A stretch of 36,596 bases of DNA from an uncultured Candidatus Saccharibacteria bacterium (GCA_964562905.1 CAZLVG010000002.1:1-36596); one strand, 5' to 3'. Shown: positions 7,502 to 36,596, counted from the first letter of the stretch. Numbers and translations are program-made. The notes: generated from the sequence alone by a model not told the origin.

Positions 7502-10363
7502 ATGGCCACCAGGCGCCTCACCCCCCATAGAAGTTACCGGTATAACCAAGAACGCCGCGTGAGGAAGCCGGGCTGGCGGCGGCGCCTGCGTTCCCGCCTA
7601 ATACCGCTGGCTCTGACGACGGCGGGGCTGGGTTTTTTATTGGTGGCGGGAATGGTTTTGTGGTGGAGCAAAGATCTTCCAGATCCGCAAAATATCAGTG
7701 CCCGCTCGGTGATCCAGTCCACCAAAATCTTCGACCGCACCGGCACCCACCTGCTCTATGAGATTGGTGATATTAGGCGGACCAGGGTAGGGCTGGACCA
7801 AATATCGCCTCACTTGATAAACGCCACCATCGCCGCGGAGGACGACCAATTCTACCAGCACCGCGGCTTGGATTTTTTGGGCATTATCCGCGGCGTTATC
7901 TTAAAGCCTTTATCGGGCCGCAGGATACAAGGCGGCTCCACTATCACCCAGCAGCTGATCAAAAATTCCATCCTAACCCCCGAACGCACGCTGCGCCGCA
8001 AGGCCAAGGAGGCCGTGCTAGCGTTGGAGTTGGAGCGGCGCTTCTCCAAAGATGAGATTCTGGAAATGTATTTGAACGAGATTCCTTACGGGTCACAGGC
8101 TTACGGAGTAGAGGCCGCCAGCCAAACCATGTTTAACCAACGCGCCTCCCAAGTTTCCCTGGCCGAAGCCTCCGTGCTGGCCGCGTTGCCCAAAGCTCCT
8201 ACCTACTACTCGCCCTACGGGTCTCACTTTGAAGACTTAAAACGGCGCCAAGAAAGCATTCTGCAGCGCATGGTTAAGCTTAACATAATAACCCAACCGG
8301 AGGCGGACGCCGCTAAGCAAGTAGAGCTTAACTTTCAACCCAGGACGGAGTCCATCTCCGCTCCTCATTTTGTGTTTTATGTCAAAGAGAAGCTGGAGGA
8401 AGAGTACGGACAGCGCGTCATAGAGCAAGGGGGTTTGCAAGTTACCACCACGCTAGATTTTAGGCTCCAAAAAATAGCGGAGGATACCTTAAGCAAGCAC
8501 CAAGAGTCGCTTAACTCACTCGGTGCTTCCAACGCCGCCCTGGTGTCCACAGACCCCGGCACGGGAGACGTTCTGGCTATGGCGGGGTCCTTGGATTACT
8601 TTAACAAAGACATTGACGGTAACGTTAACGTGGCCGTGCGCCATCGCTCGCCCGGTTCCTCCCTTAAGCCATTCGTGTACGCCGCTGCCTGGCAAAAGGG
8701 CTACACGCCGCAGACCCTACTGGTGGACGCCGCCACCGATTTCGGCCAAGGGTACCAGCCAGAAAATTACGACGGCCAGCAGCGCGGTCCGGTTTCCATG
8801 CGCTCCGCCTTAGCCAACTCTATGAACATACCGGCTGTTAAAGCGCTTTATCTGGCCGGACTAAAAAACGCCACCGACCTGGCGCAGAGCGTGGGTATGA
8901 CCTCTTTAAATGATCCCGAGCGCTACGGCTTATCACTGGTTTTGGGCGGCGGCGAAGTGCGTCTATTGGATGAAGTCTCCGCTTACGGGGTGCTGGCTAA
9001 CGATGGGGTGCGCCATCCCCACCGCGCCATACTCAAAATAGAAGACGGTCAGGAGACACTCTTTGACGCAGCCGAAGAAGGCGAGCAGCCTGGCGGGGAG
9101 CAAATCATCTCCCCGCAGCTAGCCCGGCTCGTCACCGACGTGATTGCCGACAATGCTGCCCGTTCGCTCACTTTTGGCTCCAGGAGCCCCCTGCAGCTGG
9201 GCCAGCGCCCGGTAGCTGCTAAAACGGGCACCACCCAGGATTATCGTGACGGTTGGACTTTAGGCTACACACCTTCTCTAGCCGCTGGCGTTTGGACTGG
9301 TAATAACGATAACTCACCTATGGGCGAATCCTCGCCGGGGGTGCGCACCGCGGCTCCCATCTGGCACGACTTTATGGCTTCCGCGCTGGAAGGAACCCCC
9401 ATAGAACAGTTCGCCGAGCCTGAACCCATAACTGGCATTCGCCACTCTATATTGCGGGGGGAGTTAGCGGAAGTTAAGGGCAAGTGGGAAAAGGAAACCG
9501 GCCTTGTCTACGCGCTCGACTGCCCCGTCAACATTGGACAGCCCACTACTTTTAAAGAATTGCACAGTATCCTCTTTTACGTACGCCGGGATAACCCTTC
9601 AGGGCCTCCCCCCGCCCACGCTGAAAGCGACCCCCAATTCAAAAGATGGGAGGAAGGGGTGGTTGTTTGGCGCGACCAACACAATGAGAAGAATAAGGAC
9701 AACCCCGACCAGCCGCGCTATACCCGCTCCCTACCTACACCAACCTGTGATATGGCTAACCTTGAAGATTTGCCCAAAATTACCATCACCGAACCCAACA
9801 CTTCTATACTACGAGACAGCCCGACCACGGTGCGGGTAGAAATTGATTCCCCTAAACCGCTAAAAGAGGTGCGCTTCCTTTTTGACGGTAAAGAAATTGC
9901 CAAAATGGAAGGGGACAAAAACTCTTACGGCACGACTTTATCCTTTCCTGAAGACTTCTCGGGCCGTAAAACATTATTAGTGTTGGGCGTCACCGAGAAT
10001 AACCTAGTAGGCAGGGCCCACCGCACCTTTGCTGTCAACCCCGACGGCTCCCCGCCGTCAGTAACGCTCCACGCCCCGCGCGACGGCAGTCAGCTGCGTG
10101 CTGAAGACTTTCCACTGACGGTTAAGGTAACCGCCAAAGACGACAACGGTATTGAATTGGTCGATGTCCTGTTTAGTAAAGAGGGTGATAGCGGCACCAG
10201 CCGAGTGGGGCGCACGTCAGAGTTGGCGCCCATCGCGCCCCACCGCTACGAGGTTGTCTGGCCCGACTCACCTGGTCCGGGCGCCTACACGGTTTACGCG
10301 GTAGCCTACGACAAAACGGGTAACGTGGCTCGCTCGTCCGAACACCGCCTCGTTATTGAGTAG
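7502..10363 (+). CDS. Class A penicillin-binding protein (GT51 transglycosylase + transpeptidase) with a C-terminal Ig-like extension
   Basis: 953 aa with an N-terminal TM anchor. GT51 motifs: AAEDDQFYQHRGLD, GGSTITQQL and RKAKE. Transpeptidase motifs: SPGSSLKP (SxxK), NSMN (SxN) and KTGTT. The last roughly 250 aa look like two beta-sandwich domains. Confidence 0.95.
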   Translation: MATRRLTPHRSYRYNQERRVRKPGWRRRLRSRLIPLALTTAGLGFLLVAGMVLWWSKDLPDPQNISARSVIQSTKIFDRTGTHLLYEIGDIRRTRVGLDQISPHLINATIAAEDDQFYQHRGLDFLGIIRGVILKPLSGRRIQGGSTITQQLIKNSILTPERTLRRKAKEAVLALELERRFSKDEILEMYLNEIPYGSQAYGVEAASQTMFNQRASQVSLAEASVLAALPKAPTYYSPYGSHFEDLKRRQESILQRMVKLNIITQPEADAAKQVELNFQPRTESISAPHFVFYVKEKLEEEYGQRVIEQGGLQVTTTLDFRLQKIAEDTLSKHQESLNSLGASNAALVSTDPGTGDVLAMAGSLDYFNKDIDGNVNVAVRHRSPGSSLKPFVYAAAWQKGYTPQTLLVDAATDFGQGYQPENYDGQQRGPVSMRSALANSMNIPAVKALYLAGLKNATDLAQSVGMTSLNDPERYGLSLVLGGGEVRLLDEVSAYGVLANDGVRHPHRAILKIEDGQETLFDAAEEGEQPGGEQIISPQLARLVTDVIADNAARSLTFGSRSPLQLGQRPVAAKTGTTQDYRDGWTLGYTPSLAAGVWTGNNDNSPMGESSPGVRTAAPIWHDFMASALEGTPIEQFAEPEPITGIRHSILRGELAEVKGKWEKETGLVYALDCPVNIGQPTTFKELHSILFYVRRDNPSGPPPAHAESDPQFKRWEEGVVVWRDQHNEKNKDNPDQPRYTRSLPTPTCDMANLEDLPKITITEPNTSILRDSPTTVRVEIDSPKPLKEVRFLFDGKEIAKMEGDKNSYGTTLSFPEDFSGRKTLLVLGVTENNLVGRAHRTFAVNPDGSPPSVTLHAPRDGSQLRAEDFPLTVKVTAKDDNGIELVDVLFSKEGDSGTSRVGRTSELAPIAPHRYEVVWPDSPGPGAYTVYAVAYDKTGNVARSSEHRLVIE

Positions 10364-21371: not shown

Positions 21372-22777
21372 CGCTCCTGGCCGGCCCGTGGCTGGTCCTC
21401 CGGCCCCGGCTGGCGGTGGCTTTTTTACTCTTCTCCCTGGTGTTGGGACAGACGGTTCGCTTTCCTCTGCCCGGACAAGGGGGCGGCCTGCTCATCAGCG
21501 ACCTCGCCGTGGTCATAGTTTTGTTTGCCGCCGTATTTTGGTCATTTAGTCATTGGGACTTGACTGGTCATTTGTCATTGGTCATTGGGATTTTTTTAGC
21601 CTCCTTCATCCTCTGGTCTCTCTTCACTCTCATAATCCACATTCCTGAACTGGGACTCCACAACACCACTATCGCTTTCTCTTATTGGCTACGTCTCACC
21701 AATCACCTCCTTCTCTTGCCGGCCCTACTCATCCTTTTTCAAGATACCCGCCTCGCTACCACCGCTCGCCGGGGATTAATTTTCGCCACAACTATTCTTG
21801 TCCTCCTGGGTTTTCTTCAACTGTGGCTAGTTCCTGATTTTACAGTCTTAACCAAACTAGGCTGGGATCCCCACCAGAACCGCCTCACTTCCACCTGGCT
21901 CGACCCCAACTTCTTCGGCGCCTTCCTTGCCCTCACGCTGCCATTTGTTGTGGCTAACTTAGCAAGCGCCTGTCACAGCACACCCTGTTCGCTCATTCTC
22001 GGCCGCTCCAGCGGCGGCCTCCGAGGATCGAGGCCACCTCGCCCCACCTGCGGTGGGGACCAAGCCGAGGTGACCTCTCAATCCGCTCACAGGACGTACC
22101 GTGCGGCGCTTGCCTTGTTGGCACTACTATTAATTATCATAATAATTGCCCTCCTCTTAACCCAATCCCGCGGCGCTCTTGTTGCCCTCGCCCTGTCAGT
22201 TCTTATTTTCTCTCCCCTGATTACCGCCAGGACTCTGCGCCGAGTTACTCCCGATCGGATCATGGCAATAATTAGCATTATCCTGCTTATACTCACTACT
22301 ATCACTATTTCCGCTATCTTCCTGCACGACCGCTTAATCGGACTGGCCACTTTGGACGCCACTGCCCAGCTGCGCCTGGTCGCCCTTAAAGAAACTTGGC
22401 GTCTAGTCGAGCAGAATGTCTGGCTGGGCGTCGGCTATAACGCTTATCAATTTGCCGCTGCCCGGGCCGGCTTAATAGCAAACTTCACCACCCACTCCCG
22501 CGCCGGCGCCGACAACAGCTGGCTGACGTTATGGGTAACCACCGGACTGCCCGGCGTGCTGCTGTTTCTTGTCCCCTGGGCTGTCGCGGGGCTTGTCTTG
22601 CTTAAAAAATGGCTGGCCGGCAGCCCCTATTCACTAGCTGCGCTTATCAGCCTGGGCGTATTGTTTATTGACAGCCAATTTATCAACAGCTTCTTGTACT
22701 CGCACTTGCTTATATCCCTAATAACAGTCATTGCTCTCGCGTTAGCTAAAGGCTATAGACTAAAGACTAATGACTAA
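21311..22777 (+). CDS. O-antigen ligase/polymerase-like (Wzy_C) membrane protein
   Basis: 488 aa and polytopic. LLLTQSRGALVALALS and the later ..ADNSWLTLWVTTGLPGVLLF resemble Wzy_C motifs. The 61-nt overlap with the upstream GT suggests a later start (for example the in-frame GTG at 21416). It contains a heptamer array and a GC-rich palindromic segment. Confidence 0.7.
   Translation: MLFNALEPLSLPLLFTAGALALLAGPWLVLRPRLAVAFLLFSLVLGQTVRFPLPGQGGGLLISDLAVVIVLFAAVFWSFSHWDLTGHLSLVIGIFLASFILWSLFTLIIHIPELGLHNTTIAFSYWLRLTNHLLLLPALLILFQDTRLATTARRGLIFATTILVLLGFLQLWLVPDFTVLTKLGWDPHQNRLTSTWLDPNFFGAFLALTLPFVVANLASACHSTPCSLILGRSSGGLRGSRPPRPTCGGDQAEVTSQSAHRTYRAALALLALLLIIIIIALLLTQSRGALVALALSVLIFSPLITARTLRRVTPDRIMAIISIILLILTTITISAIFLHDRLIGLATLDATAQLRLVALKETWRLVEQNVWLGVGYNAYQFAAARAGLIANFTTHSRAGADNSWLTLWVTTGLPGVLLFLVPWAVAGLVLLKKWLAGSPYSLAALISLGVLFIDSQFINSFLYSHLLISLITVIALALAKGYRLKTND
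21540..21593 (+). repeat. Heptanucleotide array, GGTCATT type, inside coding sequence
   Basis: GGTCATT T AGTCATT GGGACTT GACT GGTCATT TGTCATT GGTCATT GGGATTT. It is translated as FWSFSHWDLTGHLSLVIGIF. Confidence 0.8.
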
Positions 22778-22785
22778 AGGCTGAT
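22744..22785 (+). repeat. Heptanucleotide array (reverse-complement orientation of the AGTCATT type) spanning the ligase-1 stop codon
   Basis: GCTAAAG GCTATAG ACTAAAG ACTAATG ACTAAAG GCTGATG. The reverse complement of ACTAATG is a rotation of AGTCATT. The TAA stop lies at 22775..22777, inside the array. Confidence 0.8.
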
Positions 22786-22887
22786 GAATTCAAAACCCAG
22801 AGCTCAAATGCCAAATAAAATCCAAAACACCAAAGACCAAATATATAAGCGGCGCCGTCTTTAGATTTTTTAATTTTAGCCAGCCAT

Positions 22888-27896: not shown

Positions 27897-28394
27897 CTAC
27901 GACGCCGGCGATTGGTCAGGGGTAATATTTGTTGGCTCTCTTTCCGCGGCGGTTGCCTTGCTCTTTTCAGTCATGGGGTCGGCCGCGTCCTGCTCAATAA
28001 CATTACCTTGGGTGTTGAGGGTCTGGGCTATAAAGTCCAGGGTTGAGCGGGCAGCCGCCCCCTCGGCGGAGAATTCCTCGTACTCCTCGCCGCTTATTCT
28101 AATGTCAGCGGCGTTCGCCTGCCGCCGCCAGATGTACAGCCGGTCTCCCGTGAAATATTTCATCAAATTAGCCAGCAACTCGGCGAAGTTTTGCCCCCGC
28201 CAGCGAACGTGGGCAAACAAAGCGGCCACGCCCACCACCGGTATGGCTAGGGCCAGGAACAGGCCCAGGTCGGCCAGGGCGTAAACGGGAAGCAGCAGCA
28301 GCGCGGCCACTACGTAGTACAAAAACTGCTTCAAGGTCAGCGGGCCGATAATCCGGTCCTGGATGTCAACGAATTGGGGGACTTGATAGCGCAT
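27897..28394 (-). CDS. PrgI-family (VirB3-like) membrane protein
   Basis: The N-terminus MRYQVPQFVDIQDRIIGPLTLKQFLYYVVAALLLLP is followed by a second TM, as in PrgI/VirB3-like proteins found next to VirB4. Confidence 0.7.
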   Translation of the reverse strand: MRYQVPQFVDIQDRIIGPLTLKQFLYYVVAALLLLPVYALADLGLFLALAIPVVGVAALFAHVRWRGQNFAELLANLMKYFTGDRLYIWRRQANAADIRISGEEYEEFSAEGAAARSTLDFIAQTLNTQGNVIEQDAADPMTEKSKATAAEREPTNITPDQSPAS

Positions 28395-28395
28395 G

Positions 28396-28448
28396 GGTAA
28401 GTAACTAGTAACTAGTAACTAGTAACTGGTAATTAGTAACTGGTAATT
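28396..28448 (+). repeat. Heptanucleotide tandem array (AGTAACT/GGTAATT), left flank of four-helix-bundle gene copy 1
   Basis: GGTAA GTAACT AGTAACT AGTAACT AGTAACT GGTAATT AGTAACT GGTAATT. It fills the entire gap between the PrgI-like start (28394) and the 4HB stop (28449). Confidence 0.9.
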
Positions 28449-28896
28449 TCATACTTGACGCTCAATAGCTCTAATTATGCCGTTAATCAGCCGAGCCGCC
28501 TGATGCGCCTCATCGCCTAATCTTTTACATTGATCGCGCTCTACAAAACTTAAGTCCTTAGCGAGCAACAAAAAATTTTGCACCTCTGCCGCCGACCCGC
28601 GAGCTTGATGATAAAACCTAACCTTATCTTTATAATGATATCTGGCAAAACCCTCGGCAATGTTAGCTGTAACAGAACTGGCCGCCCGGCGTAATTGGCT
28701 GGTAATCCCATATAATTCCTCTCGCGGAAACTGCCTAGTAGCCACATAGACATTAAGAACTAATTCATGACCTTTCTTCCACGCATCAAGATCATAAAAG
28801 TTAATAACTGTCTTACTACCAGGTTGAGTCTTGGCTCTCGTCGTTGTCGTCGTAGTCGTGGTCATCGTAATTACTAGTTGCTAGTTACTAGTTACT
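28436..28896 (-). mobile_element. 461-bp cassette (4HB gene plus inner heptamer repeats), copy 1 of 2 near-identical copies
   Basis: It matches 33037..33497 at a constant offset of 4601 with one mismatch seen (28889 T versus 33490 C). Both main-frame and alternate-frame ORF translations are identical in the two copies. Mobility is an inference. Confidence 0.4.
28449..28865 (-). CDS. Four-helix-bundle protein (23S rRNA intervening-sequence protein / Avd-like family), copy 1
   Basis: 138 aa. FYDLDAWKKGHELVLNVY..T..FPREELYGITSQLRRAASSVTANIAEGFAR......FYHQARGSAAEVQNFLLLA is the TIGR02436/PF05635 pattern. The N-terminus is MTTTTTTTT. The protein is identical to copy 2. Confidence 0.9.
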   Translation of the reverse strand: MTTTTTTTTRAKTQPGSKTVINFYDLDAWKKGHELVLNVYVATRQFPREELYGITSQLRRAASSVTANIAEGFARYHYKDKVRFYHQARGSAAEVQNFLLLAKDLSFVERDQCKRLGDEAHQAARLINGIIRAIERQV

Positions 28897-28900
28897 GATT
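28866..28900 (+). repeat. Heptanucleotide tandem array (ACTAGTT type, inverted relative to the left flank), right flank of copy 1
   Basis: CGTAATT ACTAGTT GCTAGTT ACTAGTT ACTGATT. ACTAGTT is a rotation of AGTTACT, the reverse complement of AGTAACT. Confidence 0.9.
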
Positions 28901-28901
28901 A

Positions 28902-29399
28902 CTACGTTGGCATCGGCGGCGGCGCCGGCGGCTTCTTCTGCTCTTTTAAATTAAGCACATTTCGCGCTCCCGCTTCGCTTGCTTTGTCCGTCGTTACTTC
29001 CTTCTCATTGGCCGGCCCGGGAGTACTTTTCTGCCGGCGCCAGTACTGCTCCAGCTCCTTCATTACCGGCCCGAACAAGTCCTCCTCAATCTCCCGCGCC
29101 ATCTTCTGCGCCTTATCGTTGGGTAGTTGCAGTTCTGTGGATAAAAGACTGGGCAGTTGTTCCGCGCTTTTTTCGCCTACCGCTATCCGCAAAACGATTA
29201 AGGCCACCACGCTGGCCCGAGTTTCCGGCAGGTTGTAGCCCTTGACGAGCCCGCGCGTAAAGGCGCCTGTCTTTGGAGCGAACAGCAGGCCGCGCGCCTT
29301 TTCCGGTAACTGAAATACCAGGTCAACATACCTAGATCTCTCTTCGGGGGAGAGGGTGATAAGAGATCCTACTGGTACGCTGTCAAAGATAATCCCCAT
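28902..29399 (-). CDS. Hypothetical small protein (helical, Pro-rich C-terminus)
   Basis: 165 aa. The pattern ..LP..ARGLLFAP..G.F...L...Y.L.......L..L...V..GE....QL...L...L.L....A..MA.EIEEDLFGPV recurs in CPR hypothetical proteins, as I recall. It lies 9 nt downstream of the VirB6-like gene. Confidence 0.6.
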   Translation of the reverse strand: MGIIFDSVPVGSLITLSPEERSRYVDLVFQLPEKARGLLFAPKTGAFTRGLVKGYNLPETRASVVALIVLRIAVGEKSAEQLPSLLSTELQLPNDKAQKMAREIEEDLFGPVMKELEQYWRRQKSTPGPANEKEVTTDKASEAGARNVLNLKEQKKPPAPPPMPT

Positions 29400-29408
29400 A
29401 CTTAAGTG

Positions 29409-31412
29409 CTAGACGTTACCTCTTGCTTTTTCAATGGTGTTGTGCACCTCATTAACCAACCGGGCTTTCGCTTCATTGGAAAGATGGGGGTTAGCTTCTA
29501 TGTTCACCATAAGGTCCGTTTGCCCCTGGTCGCCCAGTTGTCTCATTAAGTCAGCATTTTTAGACAGACCGGTCACCTGGCTGACTTTTTGCGAGTTAGC
29601 CGCGATAGCCAACGCACCGGTATTGCCGATAGCTTCAGTAACATGCCGCTTGCTTAACTGGACTGCTGATACAGCAGGCTGGTTAAGGTTATTCACGTTG
29701 CCCCAGCTGCCGGGCATGGTTCCCACCCTGGCTGCCGCTTGCGCTTCTCGCCTGTCGGCAGGCGGGGCGCCTCCTGTGACCCGGCGGCCTAAGCGCTCGC
29801 CCCAGCTGCGCGGCTGTCCTTTAAGCGGCTTGCCCTCCTTGTCCCGCTTCACCCCCCTGGCCCAGGTGGGCAGGTGGGCGGCTACGCCGCCTTTCACCGC
29901 GCGGCCGAAGTCGCGCGCCTGCCGGCCTACTCCCCTTACGCCCGCTCTCGCGCCCGTGCCCACGTACGCCGCCTTGGCCGCGCCTCTACCGGCTCTCTTC
30001 GCTCCCCGGTAGGCCATTCCCCGCGCCCGCCGCCCGGCGCCGGCGGCTAAGCTAATAGCCGTCGCTGATCCGATTATCCCCGCGTATCGCCCGGCCATCG
30101 CCGCTACCACTAGCGCCACCGCGTATATTGATGCTTCCATCAACGCCTCAAAAGATTTTTTGAAGGGGAAATTTTTGCCGCCAAATAGGTCGCCCGCGTT
30201 AATTAAATAGTCAATATTAATTGCCCCTAGAATGATAAACAATACCACCGGGCCGTAGATTACGTAACGCATAAAAGTCTGCCACCACCTGCTGGCCAGC
30301 GCTCCCAGCCCGGGAAAGGCTACTGCCAGATAAGCTATCGGTGAAATAATCAACAGTAAAAGAAGCATGATGTATCGCATCAACAAGCTGAACACAACCA
30401 CTGCCAGAGCCAGAGCCATTATCCAAGCCAATATGGCGTTCACCAACGCGGCCAGTACCTCGTCCCATCCCCTGACCGGATCAATGAGACTCCACCAGAT
30501 ACCTGTCTGACCCGCCCCTCTCGAAAACGCCTCCTCCAGCGTTTTATATCTGGCTCCCGTCTGGGCTATCGTCGCTAATTTACCTTCTACCTGGTCAATA
30601 CTTATCCCGAACGGCCCTGGTAAGACAGCCATAATGACCCGCGAGACATCAATAATTAAACCGGCTATTACCAGACTGAAATTCACCAACAGCGCCGCTA
30701 TTAGCAGCCGTGGCAGTAACCTCCGCACTCCTCCTCCGACGTTCAATCTTAAGGTTGTTAACAGTGCTATGACCACCAAGGCCAGTAAAAACCCCATATT
30801 TATAAAACCCAATACTACGGGCCATGCGAGCTTCACTATGAGATGTTCAGTAAACGTGCCCAAGGTCAGAAGCGGGACTATACTGGCTGTAAAGAAGGAA
30901 ATTAACCAAGAAGCCAGCCAGGCCAAAGTTCTAAATAACGCTTTTAAAGTAGCGACGATAGCGTCGTTTTGTATGGCTAGTTGTCTCACACCAGGTATGA
31001 AATATGTTCCCCAAGACGCGAACCATTCTCCCCACGATGGCGCCGCGCGCGCCGGCGTTATCAGGCCGGCCACGCGGCCGTTGTCGGTTACATTGTCTCT
31101 TCTGACAACTGCCGGCGGACAAAAAAGAAGCGACTCGCCCGCGGCATCGGCCGGTATTACCGCCTGCCAGTCCAGGGAACTGTAGGCTTGTAAGGCCTTG
31201 GCGTCATCCAGTCTGACCGGCTCGCAGCCAGTCTGAACCAGATAGGCCTTTTCTTCCCGCACCGGCACCGGCAGCGGCCTTGCTGCCGCCCGGGCTGGCG
31301 GAGCTGGCAGCAGGCCCGCGCCCAGTATCAGGCTAGCTAGCCAGCCAAGCAGTATTTTTTTTGGCAGTCTTGCGGGCATAAATATACCGTTTAATAACAG
31401 GTAAAGCCGCAC
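29409..31412 (-). CDS. VirB6/TrbL-like polytopic membrane protein with a basic Gly/Ala/Arg-rich C-terminal tail
   Basis: 667 aa with a signal/anchor, a roughly 130-aa exo-domain and at least 6 hydrophobic helices. The tail reads AGAGRRARGMAYRGAKRAGRGAAKAAYVGTGARAGVRGVGRQARDFGRAVKGG. The architecture and its position next to VirB3/B4 resemble TrbL/VirB6. The ATG at 31379 (MPARLPKKILLGW) is an alternative start that avoids a 22-nt overlap. Confidence 0.55.
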   Translation of the reverse strand: MRLYLLLNGIFMPARLPKKILLGWLASLILGAGLLPAPPARAAARPLPVPVREEKAYLVQTGCEPVRLDDAKALQAYSSLDWQAVIPADAAGESLLFCPPAVVRRDNVTDNGRVAGLITPARAAPSWGEWFASWGTYFIPGVRQLAIQNDAIVATLKALFRTLAWLASWLISFFTASIVPLLTLGTFTEHLIVKLAWPVVLGFINMGFLLALVVIALLTTLRLNVGGGVRRLLPRLLIAALLVNFSLVIAGLIIDVSRVIMAVLPGPFGISIDQVEGKLATIAQTGARYKTLEEAFSRGAGQTGIWWSLIDPVRGWDEVLAALVNAILAWIMALALAVVVFSLLMRYIMLLLLLIISPIAYLAVAFPGLGALASRWWQTFMRYVIYGPVVLFIILGAINIDYLINAGDLFGGKNFPFKKSFEALMEASIYAVALVVAAMAGRYAGIIGSATAISLAAGAGRRARGMAYRGAKRAGRGAAKAAYVGTGARAGVRGVGRQARDFGRAVKGGVAAHLPTWARGVKRDKEGKPLKGQPRSWGERLGRRVTGGAPPADRREAQAAARVGTMPGSWGNVNNLNQPAVSAVQLSKRHVTEAIGNTGALAIAANSQKVSQVTGLSKNADLMRQLGDQGQTDLMVNIEANPHLSNEAKARLVNEVHNTIEKARGNV

Positions 31413-33025
31413 TGGGGCACGCCCGGCGTCTGGCGGAAATTGCCCGCCGTCAGCACCCTTAAAGCCTGCACCGCTCCCTGCTCTAAGTGCCCCGCTATCA
31501 GGTTGGCCGAGGGGGAGGTCGGTTCTTTCGGCTCGTCATAGCGCGGGTCAAGGCCGAATAAGTTTAAGCCTGTCCCCGCCACCGTTGACTGCAGGCCGCT
31601 TACGCTGCCCGCCGAGCAGTTTTCATAATATTCCGGTGTACCTGGCCTACACAGTCCGGGTGGGTCGGTATAGCCCTCCTCGCTCATTGAACAGTAACAG
31701 CTGGGCCCGGCCGCTTTTTCCCTTTCCACCAACTGCTTGCTGCCCGGTAGGTCAATGCCTTTTAAGGCGCTGGCCCGCTGGCTGGTGTCCAGTAGGCCCA
31801 ATATTTGCGGTAAGCTGTACACATCCGCTGTCCGTACTGCTACCGGGTTCTTTACTACCACCGACAACTCTTCCGGATTTACATAGCTCGCCGGTGTCCC
31901 TGCTTGCGCGGGCGAGTCCAGTTTGCTTGATTTGAGCACAACGTCAGCCAACAGCCCCTGCTCCTCCATCAGTTCCTGCTGCGCGGCGATGCGATCATGG
32001 GCCGCTGCACCGATCCGCGTCGCTGCCTGTTCGGCGAATAAAACTTGACGCGCTGTCTCCTCTTGGCACGATATTCCCCGCTCTTCTCCTTCGCAGTTAA
32101 CTTCAACCTTGCCATCCCTGCCGCGTACTAGATTTTTGTATGGATATTCTATGTCCTGATCATCCGGTGGTCCAAGTATAGTGCTGGTAGCGTTATCCAG
32201 CAACCTCGCTAATAATTCTGAATGGAACGCAGGGTCATCACTGTTTCTTACATATTCCCGCCACGCGGCTATGGCGGGAGAGTAAGCCATGGGCAGGCGC
32301 TCTCCCCCTTCCTTGTTGTATCTTCGTATACGCTCTTGTGTGTCTTCCGCTGTGCCTGACATAAAGGCTGCTAGCGTGCCATCCTTCACGGGCTTATTTT
32401 TCCAGTCTAGTGGATCCATGACGATCGCTCCTCGGCGCTTGTCCTCTATCGTCTTCAACTCGCTGGAGCTCGAACTGGTGCCAGTGTCGGTAGCGGTTAG
32501 GTTATACTCGCAATTCTCCAGTCCCAGCCCGTAATCACACAACGCGCGCAGCAGCTCGCTGGTTGAGTTGCGCCGCCCGTGCTCCGCCCCGTACTCGCGC
32601 ACCAGCTGGTCGCTGTAAAGGTCGGTGCCTTCCAGGGTGATGGCGCGCGTTAAGAGATCGGCTATGCCGGGGTCGGTCGGGGAAACTGCCTCGTCTGTAC
32701 CAACTTTGGTAGTTTCTGTTAAAGGAAATTTCTCCTCCTCAAACGGCGGCTCTATCCCTTCCTTTTCACCGGCTTTGGCCCGCTCTTTTAGCAGCTCTTC
32801 CCGCGTGTACCGCGTTTCCACGTAGTCGGCCTGGTCCAGCGCGGCCAGCACGTTGTAAAACAGCTGCTGCTGCGCGATGGCGGTGTAGAACACCGCGTGC
32901 GGGTCCGCCCGCGCCGCCCGGGGATAAAACGCGATGAGAGACACAACGCATACGACAAACAAAACACAAGCGGTATTTGTGATTTGTGTTTTGCTTAGTT
33001 TATGCTTTATTGGTCTTTTATGCAT
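31391..33025 (-). CDS. Hypothetical large exported protein (N-terminal anchor, Cys-containing, no recognised domain)
   Basis: 544 aa. The N-terminal TM is ACVLFVVCVVSLIAFY. Acidic and helical segments follow, with paired Cys (CDYGLGLENC, NCEGEERGISC, CYCS..C..C, CGFTC). Confidence 0.6.
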   Translation of the reverse strand: MHKRPIKHKLSKTQITNTACVLFVVCVVSLIAFYPRAARADPHAVFYTAIAQQQLFYNVLAALDQADYVETRYTREELLKERAKAGEKEGIEPPFEEEKFPLTETTKVGTDEAVSPTDPGIADLLTRAITLEGTDLYSDQLVREYGAEHGRRNSTSELLRALCDYGLGLENCEYNLTATDTGTSSSSSELKTIEDKRRGAIVMDPLDWKNKPVKDGTLAAFMSGTAEDTQERIRRYNKEGGERLPMAYSPAIAAWREYVRNSDDPAFHSELLARLLDNATSTILGPPDDQDIEYPYKNLVRGRDGKVEVNCEGEERGISCQEETARQVLFAEQAATRIGAAAHDRIAAQQELMEEQGLLADVVLKSSKLDSPAQAGTPASYVNPEELSVVVKNPVAVRTADVYSLPQILGLLDTSQRASALKGIDLPGSKQLVEREKAAGPSCYCSMSEEGYTDPPGLCRPGTPEYYENCSAGSVSGLQSTVAGTGLNLFGLDPRYDEPKEPTSPSANLIAGHLEQGAVQALRVLTAGNFRQTPGVPQCGFTCY

Positions 33026-33028
33026 ATC

Positions 33029-33049
33029 TAAAACTGGTAACTGGTAATT
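33029..33049 (+). repeat. Short heptanucleotide array (TAAAACT GGTAACT GGTAATT), left flank of 4HB copy 2
   Basis: It lies between the upstream gene start (33025) and the 4HB stop (33050). Confidence 0.8.
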
Positions 33050-33466
33050 TCATACTTGACGCTCAATAGCTCTAATTATGCCGTTAATCAGCCGAGCCGC
33101 CTGATGCGCCTCATCGCCTAATCTTTTACATTGATCGCGCTCTACAAAACTTAAGTCCTTAGCGAGCAACAAAAAATTTTGCACCTCTGCCGCCGACCCG
33201 CGAGCTTGATGATAAAACCTAACCTTATCTTTATAATGATATCTGGCAAAACCCTCGGCAATGTTAGCTGTAACAGAACTGGCCGCCCGGCGTAATTGGC
33301 TGGTAATCCCATATAATTCCTCTCGCGGAAACTGCCTAGTAGCCACATAGACATTAAGAACTAATTCATGACCTTTCTTCCACGCATCAAGATCATAAAA
33401 GTTAATAACTGTCTTACTACCAGGTTGAGTCTTGGCTCTCGTCGTTGTCGTCGTAGTCGTGGTCAT
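33050..33466 (-). CDS. Four-helix-bundle protein (23S rRNA intervening-sequence protein / Avd-like family), copy 2
   Basis: The 138-aa product is identical to that of 28449..28865. Confidence 0.9.
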   Translation of the reverse strand: MTTTTTTTTRAKTQPGSKTVINFYDLDAWKKGHELVLNVYVATRQFPREELYGITSQLRRAASSVTANIAEGFARYHYKDKVRFYHQARGSAAEVQNFLLLAKDLSFVERDQCKRLGDEAHQAARLINGIIRAIERQV

Positions 33467-33497
33467 CGTAATTACTAGTTGCTAGTTACCAGTTACT
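33467..33497 (+). repeat. Heptanucleotide array (CGTAATT ACTAGTT GCTAGTT ACCAGTT ACT), right flank of copy 2
   Basis: The TAA stop of the next gene (33495..33493 on the minus strand) is formed inside this array. Confidence 0.85.
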
Positions 33498-34392
33498 TAA
33501 TATCATACATCTCCTCCAGCGCCCGTATCCGCTCCGCCAGCTCCTGAAACACCGCCCCCAAATCCTCAATGTTTCGCGCCGCCACCAGCGCGCCCACGAA
33601 ATCCTGGTCCACGCGGGACAGCAGCTCGGCGTTGTCCCGCAGGGACCGCGAGGCGGCTACCAGTTTTATGTGCGTGTCTTTCACTTCCGCCGGCGCCGGC
33701 ACGGCCTTCAGTATCCCAACATTATCCGACAGCGCTTTTACCACCTGGTTCATGGGCTGCTTATCGCGCGCGTTGACCTGGGCCCGGAAGGCCGCTGCTA
33801 CGTCCGAGCTGGTAACTTCTTTTAACTGGTCGTTGTGGGCGGACGATATTTGGTCCAGATAAGCGGACACGGCTTCCTTGCCCTCTCCCGCGGCGACTTT
33901 GATGTCGTCTTCAGTTAAGGCGGGCATCAGCGCGCCCCGGTTTTTCTCCACGAACGCTTCCAGTTTGGCCTGGTCCAGTATGTCCTCCTGCGGTACATCC
34001 TCGGGCAAAGTGGCCAGGTAGCGCTGGGTGAAAGTTTTCTGCTGGGTCACCTGGCTGCCCGTGGCCGGCTTGACGGCGTCGTCCGGCCCCGGTATGCGCG
34101 GGTCCCGCCCGGCTATTATTTCGTCCAAGTCGCTCATGCCGTCGCCGTCGGTATCGGGGTTGTTAGGGTCCGTCTGGTAATACACCACCTCAAACATGTC
34201 GGCTACGCCGTCCTCGTCGCTATCCTGCTGGCGGTCGCCGGCGTACTCCCGCGCCGCCTCCTGCTCCGTTTTTTCCTCGGCTTCTTCCCTGAACAGCAGC
34301 GTCTTGCCGCCCCAGTACAAGCCGAACAAAATCGCCAGCACCACCGCCGTGATGGCGGCTACTTGCAGGCCCAGCCGGTTAATTTCCTTCAT
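33493..34392 (-). CDS. N-terminally anchored protein with thrombospondin-type-3-like Ca-binding Asp repeats and a helical C-terminal domain
   Basis: 299 aa. The TM is AAITAVVLAILFGLYWGGK. DSDEDGVADMFE and DPNNPDTDGDGMSDLDE are TSP3-like DxDxDG repeats. Confidence 0.7.
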   Translation of the reverse strand: MKEINRLGLQVAAITAVVLAILFGLYWGGKTLLFREEAEEKTEQEAAREYAGDRQQDSDEDGVADMFEVVYYQTDPNNPDTDGDGMSDLDEIIAGRDPRIPGPDDAVKPATGSQVTQQKTFTQRYLATLPEDVPQEDILDQAKLEAFVEKNRGALMPALTEDDIKVAAGEGKEAVSAYLDQISSAHNDQLKEVTSSDVAAAFRAQVNARDKQPMNQVVKALSDNVGILKAVPAPAEVKDTHIKLVAASRSLRDNAELLSRVDQDFVGALVAARNIEDLGAVFQELAERIRALEEMYDIK

Positions 34393-34435: not shown

Positions 34436-34858
34436 CTAAAACTTCACCTCTGTTTCCGGCAAAAGTCTTCTTACCTTTTCCACTTCCTCCGCCGGCAACG
34501 GGTTGCCTCGTAAATCCAACATCTCCAATTCCCGCAAAGCAACTATTTCCTCTGGGACTTCTCTTATATTATTACCACTAACGTCCAACCAAGTAAGACT
34601 GGTTACAAAACTGACTCCTCTGGTCAAACTTGGCATCCTGCGGCCGCTTAAATCAAGCCCGCAAACCTGCTTGCCGGCTTTTATAAAGTCCTCCTGCGCC
34701 GCTTTCAAGTCTGTGTAAATCTCTTCGCACACTAAAGCTCCCTCCTCGCTCTCCTCTGCTCCTGGTAAAAACTGCCTGCCCTCGTACCAGACTAGCAGCA
34801 GGAAGGCGACCAGGAAAACCGCCGCCGCCAGGAATAACAGGCTCCTTTTCGCCGTCAT
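34436..34858 (-). CDS. Small N-terminally anchored leucine-rich-repeat protein
   Basis: 140 aa with a TM, an acidic linker, a Cys-capped LRR start (VCEEIYTDL...VCGLDLSGRRMPSL) and LRR units (LTWLDVSGNNIREVP, LEMLDLRGNPLP). It is a paralog of the next gene. Confidence 0.8.
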   Translation of the reverse strand: MTAKRSLLFLAAAVFLVAFLLLVWYEGRQFLPGAEESEEGALVCEEIYTDLKAAQEDFIKAGKQVCGLDLSGRRMPSLTRGVSFVTSLTWLDVSGNNIREVPEEIVALRELEMLDLRGNPLPAEEVEKVRRLLPETEVKF

Positions 34859-34859
34859 G

Positions 34860-35726
34860 CTAAAAATTCACCGTCGCGTTCGGCAAGAGTTTCCTTATTC
34901 TGTCCACTTCCTCCGCCGGCAGGGGATTGCCCCGTAACTCTAAACGCTCCAGTTCCGCTAATGTTGACGGCAGTAGGCTGCGGATTTGAGACAAAGGCAA
35001 CGATGACAATTGGTTGTTTCTTAGATCCAACACCACTAACTTTTTGGCGTAAATAATCTGGTCCGGGACCAGATTTATTTGGTTTCCCCGAACTATTAGT
35101 TTCCGCAGGTTAGGCGCACCTATGTTTTGGTGTACCTCCGTTAACTGGTTTCCTTCTAGATTTAATACCTCCAAATTTTTCATACCACCCACCCAATAGG
35201 GAAATTTAGTTATCTGATTGTAACTAAAATCAAGCTCCCTTAATTCCATCAGCCAGCCTAGTTGTGACGGCATTGTTGCCATTTGGTTTCCGCTGGCGTC
35301 CAGCTTCACCAGACTTTTCCTCAATTGCCCTATATCTCCGCTGATCTCCGTAAGCTGATTATCGCTGATGTCTAAAATAGCCAGATTTTTAAAGGATGCA
35401 ATTTCTTTCCCTAGCTTGGTCATATTTCCATTGCTAAGACTAAGCTCGCATACTTTCTCTGCGCTTTGCAGAGCTTTCTCTAGGTCTGTGTAGACCTGTT
35501 CCGGCGGGCACTCCAGCCTCACTTCAACTCGGGCCTCTTCTTCCTTCTTTTCCTCTTCCGGAGCCACCAGTAGTTTCTTCCCGCCCCAGTACAACCCGAA
35601 CAGCACTAATAAAACTACGGTGGTGACGGCAGCCACTTTAACTCCCACCTTAACGGCTGACTCCCCCCCGCCGTCTGGCGGCGTTGGCGGCGTGGCGGTA
35701 GGCTCGTCCATAGGATTATGATACAT
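34860..35726 (-). CDS. N-terminally anchored leucine-rich-repeat protein (about 8 LRR units)
   Basis: 288 aa. The TM is VAAVTTVVLLVLFGLYWGGK. Repeated LxxLxLxxNxLxxLP units are present (LAILDISDNQLTEISGDI, LVKLDASGNQMATMPSQL, LRELDFSYNQITKFP, LEVLNLEGNQLTEV and others). Confidence 0.85.
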   Translation of the reverse strand: MYHNPMDEPTATPPTPPDGGGESAVKVGVKVAAVTTVVLLVLFGLYWGGKKLLVAPEEEKKEEEARVEVRLECPPEQVYTDLEKALQSAEKVCELSLSNGNMTKLGKEIASFKNLAILDISDNQLTEISGDIGQLRKSLVKLDASGNQMATMPSQLGWLMELRELDFSYNQITKFPYWVGGMKNLEVLNLEGNQLTEVHQNIGAPNLRKLIVRGNQINLVPDQIIYAKKLVVLDLRNNQLSSLPLSQIRSLLPSTLAELERLELRGNPLPAEEVDRIRKLLPNATVNF

Positions 35727-35743
35727 TATAACGCGCTGAATGT

Positions 35744-36596
35744 TTAGGGGTTTAAGTGATGTACCACTTGTTTGTTAGCCAAGCATTCTTCCTTGGAAGT
35801 AATCCAGATGTCGTGAACCATGCGCGGCGTGGGACTGACTGAAGGCGAAGGCGATGGCGAAGGGCTGGGGGAAGGCGAAGGCGACGGCGAAGGGCTGGGG
35901 GAAGGCGAGGGCGATGGCGAAGGGCTGGGAGATGGCGACGGCGAAGGCGACGGCGAAGGGCTGGGGCTGGGGGAAGGCGAAGGCGAAGGGGGATTATCAT
36001 CGTTAGTAATGGTACAGACAAGGTGGACGTTAATGGTCGGGATGTAGGCCGCGCCGTCCGAGCTGCAGTTCCCTCCCCAGTCGGAGGCGGTGTAGCCAGC
36101 CAGCTCTGTCTCTGCCGCCGTGTGGTTTCCCGGAGCAACCGCCACCGTTGCTCTTCCCTGTTCGTCGAGCCACACCTCTCCCCCGTCCAGCGTCAGCTTA
36201 AAATCGTTCGGCTCTGCCGTCCCGCCGTCATCAGTAGTTACCGTCTTCACCAACGTAATGGTGGAAGAGATGTCGTCATTGGTCACCGTACACGTTATCT
36301 GCTCTCCCTCCTCCAGGGTTACACTGCCGTCCTCGCAGTCTCCCGAGCCTCCCGTCCAGCCCAGGTTTTCGTATCCGAATTGCCCTTTTTCGCTAATCTG
36401 GTACGTTCCCGGCGGCAGGGGGTTTTCTTCTCCACTTTGCACTTGGTCTTTGTCGATGAACAGGGCAAAGCTATCTGCGCTGGCCGTCCCGCCGTCATAG
36501 TTGTTTACTTTCTTGATCAAGGTGATGGACGATGTTGGCGGAGGCGAAGGGGGATTATCATCGTTAGTAATGGTACAGACAAGGTGGACGTTAATG
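35744..36596 (-). CDS. Repetitive surface protein: tandem prealbumin/Ig-like beta-sandwich domains plus a long (Ser-Pro)n linker; 5' end beyond the window
   Basis: The frame stays open upstream of the track TTG start (36520) to the window end (..[36 protein letters not shown]..). The domain pattern ITL(I/V)K.V..DDGGTA...DF.L is repeated. An (SP)n run of roughly 35 dipeptides follows. Confidence 0.8.
35841..35990 (-). repeat. Coding tandem repeat (30-nt units) encoding the (Ser-Pro)n linker
   Basis: GAAGGCGAAGGCGATGGCGAAGGGCTGGGG-type units lie at 35841..35870, 35871..35900 and 35901..35930, then become degenerate up to about 35990. Confidence 0.85.

Follow-up and report, generated by a model that had tools for sequence, protein, structure and literature searches.

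Two probable IVS-type elements, each a PF05635 gene closed by inverted heptamer arrays, in a T4SS-like operon of a Candidatus Saccharibacteria bacterium

What kind of element are two near-identical small genes, each enclosed by inverted arrays of a 7-nt repeat and each filling a gap in the same secretion operon? Here we report an analysis of these two cassettes in a 36,596-nt stretch of DNA from an uncultured Candidatus Saccharibacteria bacterium (hereafter, the window), together with 160 homologous loci from many phyla. The host setting is a T4SS-like operon on a Patescibacteria-type chromosome, in which genes for PrgI-like, TraC-like, VirB4/TraG P-loop, and T4SS pilin proteins flank the cassettes and are, like them, encoded on the minus strand. 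Copy 1 lies between an upstream 165-aa gene with a Pro-rich tail (28902..29399) and a downstream gene for a PrgI-family (VirB3-like) T4SS component (27897..28394; PF12666, 31.8 bits), in a gap that we call site A. Copy 2 lies between an upstream 299-aa gene with bacterial TSP3 repeats (33493..34392) and a downstream 544-aa gene (31391..33025) that has no family match and a membrane-anchor-like N-terminal start. Each array-bracketed cassette takes up the whole gap between its neighbors.

The two copies match perfectly over 453 nt at a constant offset of 4601 (28436-28888 and 33037-33489), with a single mismatch at 28889, after which identity resumes up to 28896. Read in the sense of the minus-strand genes, copy 1 consists of a 5' arm of about five (AGTAACT)n-type units (28866..28904; seen by TRF, as an inverted repeat, and in the sequence), whose outermost unit holds the TAG stop of the 165-aa gene; a 138-aa ORF (28449..28865) of the PF05635/TIGR02436 four-helix-bundle family (S23p, the 23S rRNA IVS protein family); and a 3' arm of about seven (AGTTACT/AATTACC)n units (28395..28448) that stops 5 nt short of the PrgI-like gene's ATG. 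In copy 2, the 5' arm of about four units (33467..33499) equals the inner units of copy 1 save one base and includes the TSP3-repeat gene's TAA stop, the ORF (33050..33466) is identical to that of copy 1, and the 3' arm of about 2.5 units (33026..33049) stops some 6 nt short of the 544-aa gene's ATG. TRF placed period-7 arrays at 28400-28446 (6.7 units), 28871-28904 (4.9), 33032-33047 (2.3), and 33472-33497 (3.7), and the two 36-nt arms of copy 1 (28400-28435 and 28868-28903) show 89% complementarity. The stop codons of the neighboring genes (28902-28904 and 33493-33495) fall inside the outermost array unit, with 5-6 nt between the start codons (28392-28394 and 33023-33025) and the array. With 7-nt units, an intergenic position, and at least about 3 units, these are heptamer tandem arrays of the STRR / LSSR class. 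The window has 11 occurrences of the pattern GTAAY-N2-GTAAY-N2-GTAAY, at most one mismatch being allowed, versus 0 in 100 shuffles; apart from those in one extra array at 23970, all of them belong to the two cassettes. The GC content of the cassettes is 0.41-0.47, compared with 0.55-0.64 in adjoining sequence. An earlier note on this DNA had described two near-identical, AT-rich cassettes, co-oriented with the surrounding secretion genes and bracketed by inverted heptamer arrays that differ in length between the copies (by TRF, 6.7 versus 2.3 and 4.9 versus 3.7 units) and hold the stops of neighboring genes. All of this is borne out, and only the wording of the arrays needs correction: in the sense of the minus-strand genes, (AGTAACT)n is the upstream and (AGTTACT)n the downstream array.

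Copies this similar might reflect an error of assembly in which the second one is an artefact. Independent contigs found in Logan (SRR7048218) cover only the upstream junction of copy 1, where contig L001 connects it to the 165-aa gene, and another contig, L096, stops within the TSP3 gene, short of copy 2; moreover, many homologues lie on short contigs, so assemblies do break at these repeats. However, the ORFs on either side of copy 2 are intact at both junctions, one stopping inside the array and the other starting 6 nt past it; copy 2 also differs from copy 1 in its array lengths and at one base; and several copies within a few kb are also present in a polished 1.3-Mb contig (L074). We consider an artefact very improbable.

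Both 138-aa ORFs lie far above the curated cut-offs of PF05635 (E 1.1e-34, 119.3 bits versus 33.8) and TIGR02436 (115.8 bits versus 24), and the AlphaFold2 model has four helices (pLDDT 87.7). In Foldseek, the best match is 2GSC (TM 0.9, rmsd 1.4), followed by 2RLD and the Avd structure 4DWL, and the sequence profile matches 2GSC at E 1e-20. Predicted structure and profile together give a fold like that of Xcc0516 (2GSC) and BT_0352 (2RLD); the profile scores and Foldseek matches thus uphold the family and the Avd-like fold that the earlier note had proposed. The PDB entries 2GSC and 2RLD contain five chains each, and 4DWL likewise crystallises with five chains. The cassette protein is basic (pI about 9.3-9.8) and, with dN/dS values of 0.07-0.27, under purifying selection. 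Its family is large, the PF05635 profile retrieving 29,127 clusters at 50% identity (E<=1e-3) and 11,256 at E<=1e-10; annotations call its members 'four helix bundle protein' and nothing more specific, or mislabel them 'S23 ribosomal protein'.

The fold raises the question of whether the gene encodes Avd, the RNA- and RT-binding accessory protein of a diversity-generating retroelement. The Avd of Bordetella phage BPP-1 (4DWL, 8UB7; Foldseek TM about 0.85) is likewise a basic four-helix bundle, but the equivalog model NF033474 scores 17.5 bits here against a cut-off of 80, the likely-gene ORFs scanned in the window include no RT, and the general repeat list of the window contains no candidate TR/VR pair (template and variable repeat). 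For the window, this reading is effectively refuted and is extremely improbable.

The array-bracketed build recurs in the 160 loci, 80 from GTDB and 80 from metagenomes, which are homologues rather than independent events and in which genes were called by a simple longest-ORF heuristic. In most of them, period-7 arrays abut the start and stop codons. Period 7 was the best period in 121/159 flanks of the GTDB loci versus 13/426 control windows, and in 89/156 flanks of the metagenome loci (10 more having period 8) versus 1/321 controls; in 548 kb, 220 period-7 arrays were found versus 13-33 for periods 4-12. The arms are complementary within their own locus, with a median score of 18 versus 7 for shuffled flanks and 7.5 for the direct orientation, and in a second locus set the score reached at least 12 in 54% of loci versus 0% of shuffles. 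Arms have a median length of 28 nt; the 5' arm begins -0.5 nt from the upstream stop and finishes 6 nt ahead of the ATG, and the 3' arm restarts 7 nt past the ORF stop and finishes 7 nt ahead of the next ATG. In 70/74 cases (background 0.78, p 9e-5) and 52/59 cases (background 0.72, p 0.002), cassette and upstream gene point the same way. Cassettes occur in rRNA, V-ATPase, cas, pilin, and tRNA-adjacent loci, and in Azospirillum (L086) the LSU rRNA (Rfam, 2157 bits) contains one, with inverted heptamer arrays for arms. The entity conserved across phyla is the whole unit of array, ORF, and array, which fits closely into the space between one gene's stop codon and the start of the next and shares the orientation of the upstream gene. 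The build is common across a very large family rather than a local oddity. We found no publication generalising the link between heptamer arrays and PF05635.

Comparison of related secretion loci revealed both filled and empty gaps. Site A is occupied in the window and in four related genomes (L002, L010, L027, and L041), where a diverged orthologous cassette adjoins the PrgI-like orthologue; L013 has site A empty and two other sites, B and C, occupied, and orthologues of the 165-aa gene are present in L002, L010, L013, and L027. Because the gaps that are filled differ between related genomes, the cassette is mobile on an evolutionary scale, in agreement with the mobility claimed by the earlier note. 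Diverged paralogues within one genome carry different heptamers, and ORF-less hairpins with the arms of the resident cassette stand at the equivalent position, running from stop codon through the two arms to ATG (L048, L055, and L021), which argues that it is the unit of array, ORF, and array that moves; the unit is inherited and moved as one. Since site A carries diverged orthologues in relatives, copy 1 is an old resident, not a fresh insertion, and copy 2 is either a very recent copy of copy 1 or has been converted by it. The description 'recently active' therefore stands for the copies relative to each other and fails for copy 1 at its old conserved site; of the two sites, it is that of copy 1 which shows the old residence that had been named as evidence against recent mobility.

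Both sites may, alternatively, be old and no new insertion have occurred, the 453-nt identity being due to recent gene conversion with tracts ending in the arrays. The age of site A agrees with this, as do the 4.6-kb distance and direct orientation of the copies and the fact that identity stops inside the arrays, whose outer units differ between copies in number and sequence. Yet a new copy with short arms would explain equally well why the arms of copy 2 correspond to inner units of those of copy 1, and no relative was found that shows whether the copy 2 site is old: the 544-aa gene has one relative (26% identical) in L010, on a contig that stops before the junction, and none in the metagenome scan. 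We regard conversion without new insertion as a tentative and somewhat doubtful account.

Essentially the reading of the earlier note is a DNA transposon of the MITE/IS type, in which the arrays would act on DNA as TIRs or recombination substrates, the enzyme would be encoded elsewhere or be the PF05635 protein, and the RNA stem would be incidental. It accords with the inverted arms, the varying site occupancy, and the ORF-less derivatives near their parent, which resemble MITEs. Arm duplex energy does not differ between the sense and antisense strands (79 versus 61 loci, p 0.15), so the complementarity could be selected on DNA, as TIRs or ssDNA hairpins. A 5-bp direct repeat, ATATC, adjoins copy 2 (33024-33028 and 33500-33504); at copy 1 a direct repeat is absent, and a real duplication at copy 2 would imply an ancestral fused TSP3/544-aa frame, which is implausible because the start of the 544-aa protein is membrane-anchor-like. 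No transposase, integrase, or RT was found among roughly 36 ORFs of the window that were chosen as likely genes and scanned, as the earlier note had observed, or beside cassettes in the syntenic operon loci, L074, and plasmid records. In addition, the strong co-orientation with host transcription is unexpected from transposition alone, although selection could yield it. Such a transposon is conceivable, but we doubt it; a role of the heptamer arrays as recombination or insertion substrate is possible, and a role as RNA stem fits them equally.

Purifying selection on the protein and the retention of site A over long divergence could also mean that these are domesticated accessory genes of host operons (T4SS here, cas in cyanobacteria), duplicated for their function and not selfish. 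PF05635 genes are indeed found repeatedly in cas operons, such as in the gap between cmr2 and cmr3 (PMC3936711; L083). Nevertheless, the same build occurs in unrelated contexts, from rRNA to pilin loci, genomes differ in where one operon carries the cassette, cassettes also occur as decayed fragments and ORF-less remnants, and PADLOC gave no match; we judge domestication improbable.

The cassettes are probably copies of a selfish element of the IVS type, a promoterless PF05635 gene closed by inverted heptamer arrays, residing here in a protein-coding operon. They share with IVS elements a PF05635 ORF enclosed by terminal inverted repeats, here arms of 36 nt in copy 1, with heptamers directly upstream of the start. 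On the sense strand, neither copy is preceded by a promoter-like site, and read-through from the host operon would transcribe the element. In the transcript, the arms would pair into a stem of ~28-45 bp enclosing the ORF; in MFE folds, the two arrays of cassette 1 pair and close the ORF (z = -3.1), whereas cassette 2 gave no significant fold (z = -1.5). By analogy with the IVSs of Coxiella, Leptospira, and Salmonella, RNase III would cut this stem, so that the loop with the ORF is freed and the host cistrons are split apart. Excision by RNase III has been shown experimentally only for rRNA IVSs. In the AT-rich lineage, inward arrays would place stops in all three frames before the ORF and so shield it from upstream ribosomes. 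Such stops are frequent in the GTAAC lineage (inward 64/80 and 61/80, outward 13/80 and 21/80) and weak in a diverse set (27 and 25 versus 13 and 19 of 76), and being strong in that one lineage only, they may be inherited rather than selected. The sole candidate factor encoded by the element is the PF05635 protein, a putatively pentameric, nucleic-acid-binding relative of Avd.

A bolder extension, which we think unlikely, is that PF05635 cassettes are minimal autonomous mobile elements whose protein recognises the heptamers of its own lineage in RNA or ssDNA and drives copy-and-paste without a canonical transposase or RT, decay seeding ORF-less hairpins and the solo arrays known as STRR, TAACTGA, and GGGAATC. 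Hints in this direction are that the heptamer differs from one protein lineage to the next, even between lineages sharing a genome, that ORF-less derivatives have the arms of the resident cassette, and that the unit contains a single gene, under purifying selection. Solo heptamer arrays have been unexplained since 1990.

If PF05635 genes are fixed units with inverted heptamer arrays, lying in transcription units of all kinds, three puzzles become one testable system, namely the nature and spread of rRNA intervening sequences, the presence of PF05635 genes inside cas, secretion, and other operons, and the origin of bacterial heptamer arrays. The genes of such cassettes should then not be taken for functional parts of their host operons, and the cassettes would also explain contig breaks in CPR assemblies.

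Among known systems, integron cassettes are similarly promoterless single-ORF units arranged in series within a transcription unit, with foldable imperfect inverted repeats. They differ in bearing a single attC, at the 3' end, in depending on an IntI integrase and an attI platform, and in lacking heptamer periodicity; an integron cassette was rejected here, the arms being on both sides and no integrase being found among the scanned ORFs of the window. Correia/NEMIS elements of Neisseria and similar MITEs, reportedly treated by De Gregorio et al. in 2002-2003, are short inverted-repeat elements inserted into operons, in intergenic regions that are transcribed, and RNase III targets the RNA hairpins that they form. 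The ORF-less heptamer hairpins look analogous to them, but Correia elements have unique 26-bp inverted-repeat arms, a TA target duplication, no ORF, and no tandem heptamers. The cyanobacterial STRR, the TAACTGA repeats of Beggiatoaceae, cyanobacteria, and Bacteroidetes (MacGregor 2015, PMC4679880), and the GGGAATC repeats of Xanthomonas, with about 70 convergent inverted pairs (Rehm 2015, PMC4692102), are also period-7 intergenic arrays that often end a few nt from a start codon and have stops in all three frames in forward orientation. Their unit sequences differ, and the window arrays form inverted pairs around one gene family; the texts of PMC4679880 and PMC4692102 do not mention S23, 'intervening', or 'four helix', and do not link the arrays to PF05635.

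The closest likeness is to the intervening sequences of 23S rRNA, and the earlier note, in knowing of no described mechanism, missed a precedent: the anatomy is that of a classical 23S rRNA IVS. S23p-bearing IVSs were reportedly described in Leptospira by Ralph & McClelland in 1993 and in Coxiella burnetii by Afseth in 1995. The IVSs occupy helix 9, 25, or 45 of 23S rRNA, whereas the window cassettes lie between protein-coding genes of an operon, and an Rfam gathering search found no rRNA in the window. In Coxiella burnetii, the IVS has a 28-bp stem, which is cut by RNase III, with tandem GACAGAT heptamers of variable copy number in the stem, directly upstream of the start, and an S23p ORF that is decaying, its protein apparently not made (Warrier 2016, PMC4990558). 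The window ORF, in contrast, is intact and under purifying selection, and the window arrays are longer, with up to 7 units. In both systems, an ORF of the same protein family is closed by terminal inverted repeats of comparable length (a 28-bp stem in Coxiella, a median arm of 28 nt here), heptamers stand immediately before the start in numbers that vary between copies, and the element is AT-richer than its host, lacks a recombinase, and resides inside a host transcription unit.

Each of the two PF05635 cassettes, which consist of a gene between two inverted heptamer arrays (arms), proved to be a real feature of the window. As proposed from the sequence alone in the earlier note, the cassettes are near-identical at an offset of 4601: a self-comparison of the window showed no difference between positions 28436-28888 and 33037-33489, followed by a sole mismatch at 28889, after which the match resumes up to 28896. 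Both copies encode a 138-aa protein on the minus strand (28449-28865 in copy 1 and 33050-33466 in copy 2), and the proposed assignment of these proteins to PF05635 and TIGR02436 was confirmed by HMM searches, where both ORFs scored 119 bits (E value 1e-34, cut-off 33.8) and 116 bits (cut-off 24), respectively. Period-7 arrays were detected by TRF on both sides of both ORFs, the upstream arm reading (AGTAACT)n and the downstream arm (AGTTACT)n in the sense orientation, and the 36-nt arms of copy 1 are 89% complementary. Copy 2 shares with copy 1 the ORF and the inner array units and has shorter arms (about 4 and 2.5 units vs about 5 and 7 in copy 1). The pattern GTAAY-N2-GTAAY-N2-GTAAY occurs 11 times in the window vs zero times in shuffled sequences, and its sites are confined to both cassettes and one further array. 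[quoted passage not shown] The GC content is 0.41-0.47 inside the cassettes vs 0.55-0.64 around them. The inverted arrays, the neighboring stop codons inside them and the AT-richness of the cassettes thus hold as previously described, while their interpretation as a recently active mobile cassette is supported in part.

The window represents chromosomal DNA of a Patescibacteria-type organism and contains the genes for RuvB, YebC, RuvC, PBP, a RecF-like protein, DnaN, DnaA, RnpA, YidD, YidC, and Jag. Polysaccharide genes and two Wzy-type genes precede a minus-strand T4SS-like operon, which encodes a pilin, a VirB4/TraG P-loop ATPase, TraC-like and PrgI-like proteins, three proteins of 165, 544 and 667 aa without a Pfam family, as well as TSP3, LRR and SpaA-like surface proteins. 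No reverse transcriptase, transposase or integrase was found among the window ORFs chosen as likely genes and scanned, in agreement with the earlier note. On the sense strand, no promoter-like site was found upstream of either cassette, and the matches to promoters and terminators around the cassettes were not above chance. The nearest protein homologues are encoded in Patescibacteria MAGs (64-83% identity), and homologues are often located on short contigs.

[quoted passage not shown] The gap between the two Wzy genes (22745-22882, +) harbors a forward GGCTAAA/GACTAAA array of about 6 units, in which the stop codon of the first Wzy gene is located, and about 70 nt away a short array in reverse orientation (GTCTTTA..TTTTAGCC). 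Together, these arrays may represent a heptamer hairpin without an ORF and with units of another type, the predicted RNA fold of which is no better than those of shuffled sequences (z = -0.25). At 35841-35990, a 30-nt/6-nt tandem repeat of the GAAGGC type (about 25 hexamers) is located within the gene of the SpaA-like (prealbumin-fold) surface protein (35744-36520, -), and at the edge of the window, 561 nt away, the 60-nt segment 35976-36035 recurs (36537-36596, 98% identity), which suggests a tandem duplication of surface-protein genes. A 97-nt segment at the 3' end (34436-34532 and 34860-34956, 75% identity) is common to two adjacent LRR-protein genes (140 and 288 aa), which are probably local paralogues.

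The architecture of the window cassettes is conserved across the protein family. We analyzed 80 loci encoding homologues from GTDB genomes, including many classes of Patescibacteria, Omnitrophota, Margulisiibacteriota, bins labelled as Planctomycetes, Gammaproteobacteria, and others (set 1), as well as 80 further loci from metagenomes with 36-72% identity (set 2). Nearly everywhere in both sets, reading of the flanks revealed an array before the start codon and its reverse complement after the stop codon. At a stringent score, the best period was 7 in 121 of 159 flanks of set 1 vs 13 of 426 control windows at a distance of 0.7-1.3 kb, and in 89 of 156 flanks of set 2 (plus 10 with period 8) vs 1 of 321 controls, the loci in these and the following statistics being homologous rather than independent events. 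The 548 kb of set 1 contain 220 period-7 arrays vs 13-33 arrays for each of the periods 4-6 and 8-12. Local alignment of the upstream flank with the reverse complement of the downstream flank of the same locus gave a median score of 18, as compared to 7 for a shuffled flank, 7.5 for the direct orientation, and 10.5 for the flank of another locus; in set 2, a score of at least 12 was reached in 54% of loci vs 0% of shuffles. The complementary arms have a median length of 28 nt. With gene calls from a longest-ORF heuristic, and hence approximate start codons, the upstream arm starts at a median of -0.5 nt from the end of the stop codon of the upstream gene and ends 6 nt before the ATG, and the downstream arm extends from 7 nt after the ORF stop to 7 nt before the start of the next gene. 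The upstream neighbor is co-oriented in 70 of 74 loci (background 297 of 381, p 9e-5) and in 52 of 59 loci of set 2 (background 0.72, p 0.002), and the downstream neighbor is on the same strand in 66 of 72 loci (p 0.002) and, in set 2, in 46 of 58 (not significant). Among 92 detected pairs of inverted arrays, a PF05635 ORF is enclosed by 68, the remainder being 14 short solo hairpins and 10 pairs of other kinds.

Distant members on annotated plasmids are built alike from quite different heptamer units, for example AGTCAGG in Aulosira, Trichormus and Nostoc punctiforme, GGGTGTA in Calothrix, GGGAAAA in Nostoc and Geminocystis, and GGAGATA on a plasmid of Picosynechococcus PCC 7003, where the cassette (L083) is located between cas10/cmr2 and cmr3. 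An exception to the rule is a Pseudanabaena plasmid (L085) with a cassette between cas6 and cas4, whose arrays (about 15 units of AAAAGCT upstream and about 12 of AAAAGCC downstream) are direct, not inverted, and one plasmid member is without arrays. The whole family comprises 29,127 clusters at 50% identity in a profile search (E<=1e-3).

Comparison of related loci bears on the proposed mobility of the cassettes. According to tblastn, five of the fetched loci share a conserved T4SS-like operon with the window. The gap between the 165-aa and PrgI-like genes, which holds copy 1 in the window (site A), is filled by a diverged cassette (57-69% protein identity) in L002, L010, L027 and apparently L041. 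Since the host proteins beside site A are only 42-74% identical, its occupancy is old, and copy 1 is an old resident; the suggested recent mobility does not extend to this site. On the other hand, the position of the cassette differs in L013, where site A is a 70-nt spacer with only degenerate reverse-type heptamers. In this locus, a cassette of the site A lineage lies between the TraC-like and VirB4-like genes, and the gap between the PrgI-like and TraC-like genes is occupied by a cassette with GAAATTA arms from another PF05635 lineage (43% identity, 110 bits); the matching gaps in the window are 1 and 15 nt long. Four loci carry two diverged paralogues, each with its own distinct heptamer, so the arrays travel with the ORF and do not arise from a genome-wide process, and in L074, a Moraniibacteriota contig, two 98%-identical copies have a common heptamer. 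The latter locus also contains a truncated N-terminal fragment of the gene. ORF-less hairpins with the arm type of the resident cassette occupy the same position between the stop and start codons of adjacent genes in L055, where the hairpin separates two T4SS pilin genes, and in L048.

Other insertions were observed in the operon gaps of L027 (2401-3057 and 3839-5150). The gap between the TraC-like and VirB4-like genes harbors a toxin gene of the AbiEii type (PF08843, 95 bits) together with a weak AbiEi-like partner, and the gap between the PrgI-like and TraC-like genes a 218-aa ORF without assignment. The gaps of the T4SS-like operon appear to accept selfish genes in general. In L021, two copies of a compound hairpin of about 130 nt (620-760 and 1410-1540) flank a 188-aa gene; they are built from AAGATAC and CAATATT heptamers and their complements, which are unlike the units of the PF05635 cassette on that contig, and represent an ORF-less, REP/MITE-like repeat family of heptamer arrays.

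Copy 2 has either arisen recently as a new copy or represents an older cassette that underwent recent conversion by copy 1. None of the fetched operon loci has a junction comparable to that of copy 2, and a metagenome scan with the neighboring 544-aa protein gave no relatives. Exact-protein look-up for population variants and other assemblies returned just two short Logan contigs from one run, and no record for three neighboring proteins, hence neither independent support for copy 2 nor an empty-site allele is available. The Logan contigs confirm the upstream junction of copy 1 and terminate within its downstream array; that neither extends to copy 2 would agree with the second copy being an assembly artefact, but such an artefact is unlikely given that copy 2 has array lengths of its own, the genes adjoining it are intact, and L074, a polished 1.3-Mb contig, sets a precedent for multiple copies. 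Copy 2 is flanked by a 5-bp direct repeat (ATATC). Excising the element with one repeat would fuse the TSP3 and 544-aa genes in frame; as the N-terminus of the 544-aa protein resembles a membrane anchor, ATATC was not counted as a target-site duplication.

The encoded protein is under purifying selection (dN/dS 0.07-0.27 in the closest pairs) and basic, with a median pI of 9.3 (9.8 in the window). Its fold and family are established (2GSC, 2RLD), with Avd, the accessory protein of diversity-generating retroelements, being more distant (4DWL). Strict Avd identity was rejected by the NF033474 score (17.5 vs 80) and the lack of a reverse transcriptase among the scanned window ORFs, and PADLOC gave no match that would indicate membership in a defense system. 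When viral contigs were searched with the family profile for a phage vector, no relative was confirmed.

The best explanation of these data is an IVS-type selfish cassette, resembling the intervening sequences (IVSs) of rRNA genes. We regard this statement as a whole as moderately probable, with higher confidence that the element is identified correctly and moves as a unit, and lower confidence in the involvement of RNase III. The cassette would be transcribed by read-through, and its arms would pair within the transcript. In the minimum free energy structure of the cassette 1 RNA, the arms close the ORF in an interrupted stem of about 45 bp (z = -3.1); the cassette 2 RNA has a shorter stem (z = -1.5). 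By analogy with rRNA IVSs, RNase III may cleave this stem, which would free the ORF-bearing RNA and split the host cistrons. In the GTAAC lineage, the arms read inward from either side have stops in all three frames in 64 and 61 of 80 loci vs 13 and 21 of 80 outward, and these inward stops would shield the ORF from upstream ribosomes. The bias is weak in the diverse set (27 and 25 of 76 inward vs 13 and 19 of 76 outward), so the three-frame stops were treated as a lineage trait and rejected as a universal design rule. Selection may also act on the inverted repeats at the DNA level, as the duplex energies of the sense and antisense strands (G:U vs A:C) provide no signal tying the pairing to RNA; the difference was not significant in either set nor combined (79 vs 61 loci, p 0.15). 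For the IVS-type cassette, conceivable copying routes are recombination between arrays that provide portable homology arms, events based on hairpins or slippage, and an RNA intermediate for which the Avd-like protein would act as a cofactor.

A link to rRNA genes was found in Azospirillum lipoferum, where a plasmid match without an annotated gene lies within an LSU rRNA gene (Rfam RF02541, 2157 bits), in an insertion that we take to be in the helix-45 region, and its ORF is enclosed by inverted heptamer arms (GGACAGA/GGACGGA). The 23S IVS of Coxiella burnetii consists of a PF05635 (S23p) ORF within terminal inverted repeats, which pair into a 28-bp stem, with two or three tandem GACAGAT units, depending on the strain, directly before the start codon (Warrier et al. 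2016, PMC4990558). An older idea, as quoted in that paper, considers the IVS as a mobile element and its ORF as a mobility function (Ralph & McClelland 1993). A 2024 survey reported 23S_rRNA_IVP ORFs in insertions of the 16S and 23S genes of CPR bacteria (PMC11270868). In our data, L074 contains long GATGACA-type heptamer runs (5488-5618 and 7512-7693), a rotation of the Coxiella GACAGAT unit, which may be a coincidence or reflect a shared element lineage.

Heptamer arrays have been described without explanation as TAACTGA arrays in Beggiatoaceae, cyanobacteria and Bacteroidetes, which provide stops in all frames just upstream of start codons (PMC4679880), and as about 70 convergent pairs of GGGAATC arrays in Xanthomonas (PMC4692102); neither paper mentions the IVS protein. 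PF05635 genes in cas operons were considered as possible cas-associated genes, including one at the cmr2|cmr3 position in Pleurocapsa PCC 7327, with the repeats unmentioned (PMC3936711). None of these scattered reports, including that on the Coxiella heptamers, generalizes the cassette architecture, and the full-text literature search returned no statement that PF05635 genes generally sit within inverted heptamer arrays or represent mobile in-operon cassettes. We therefore class the window cassettes as IVS-type elements outside rRNA with a generalizing architecture. The window cassettes share with the classical 23S IVS the protein, the stem length and the heptamers at the start codon, and are thus the same kind of element; however, the classical IVS sits in an rRNA gene, whereas the window cassettes reside in an mRNA operon.
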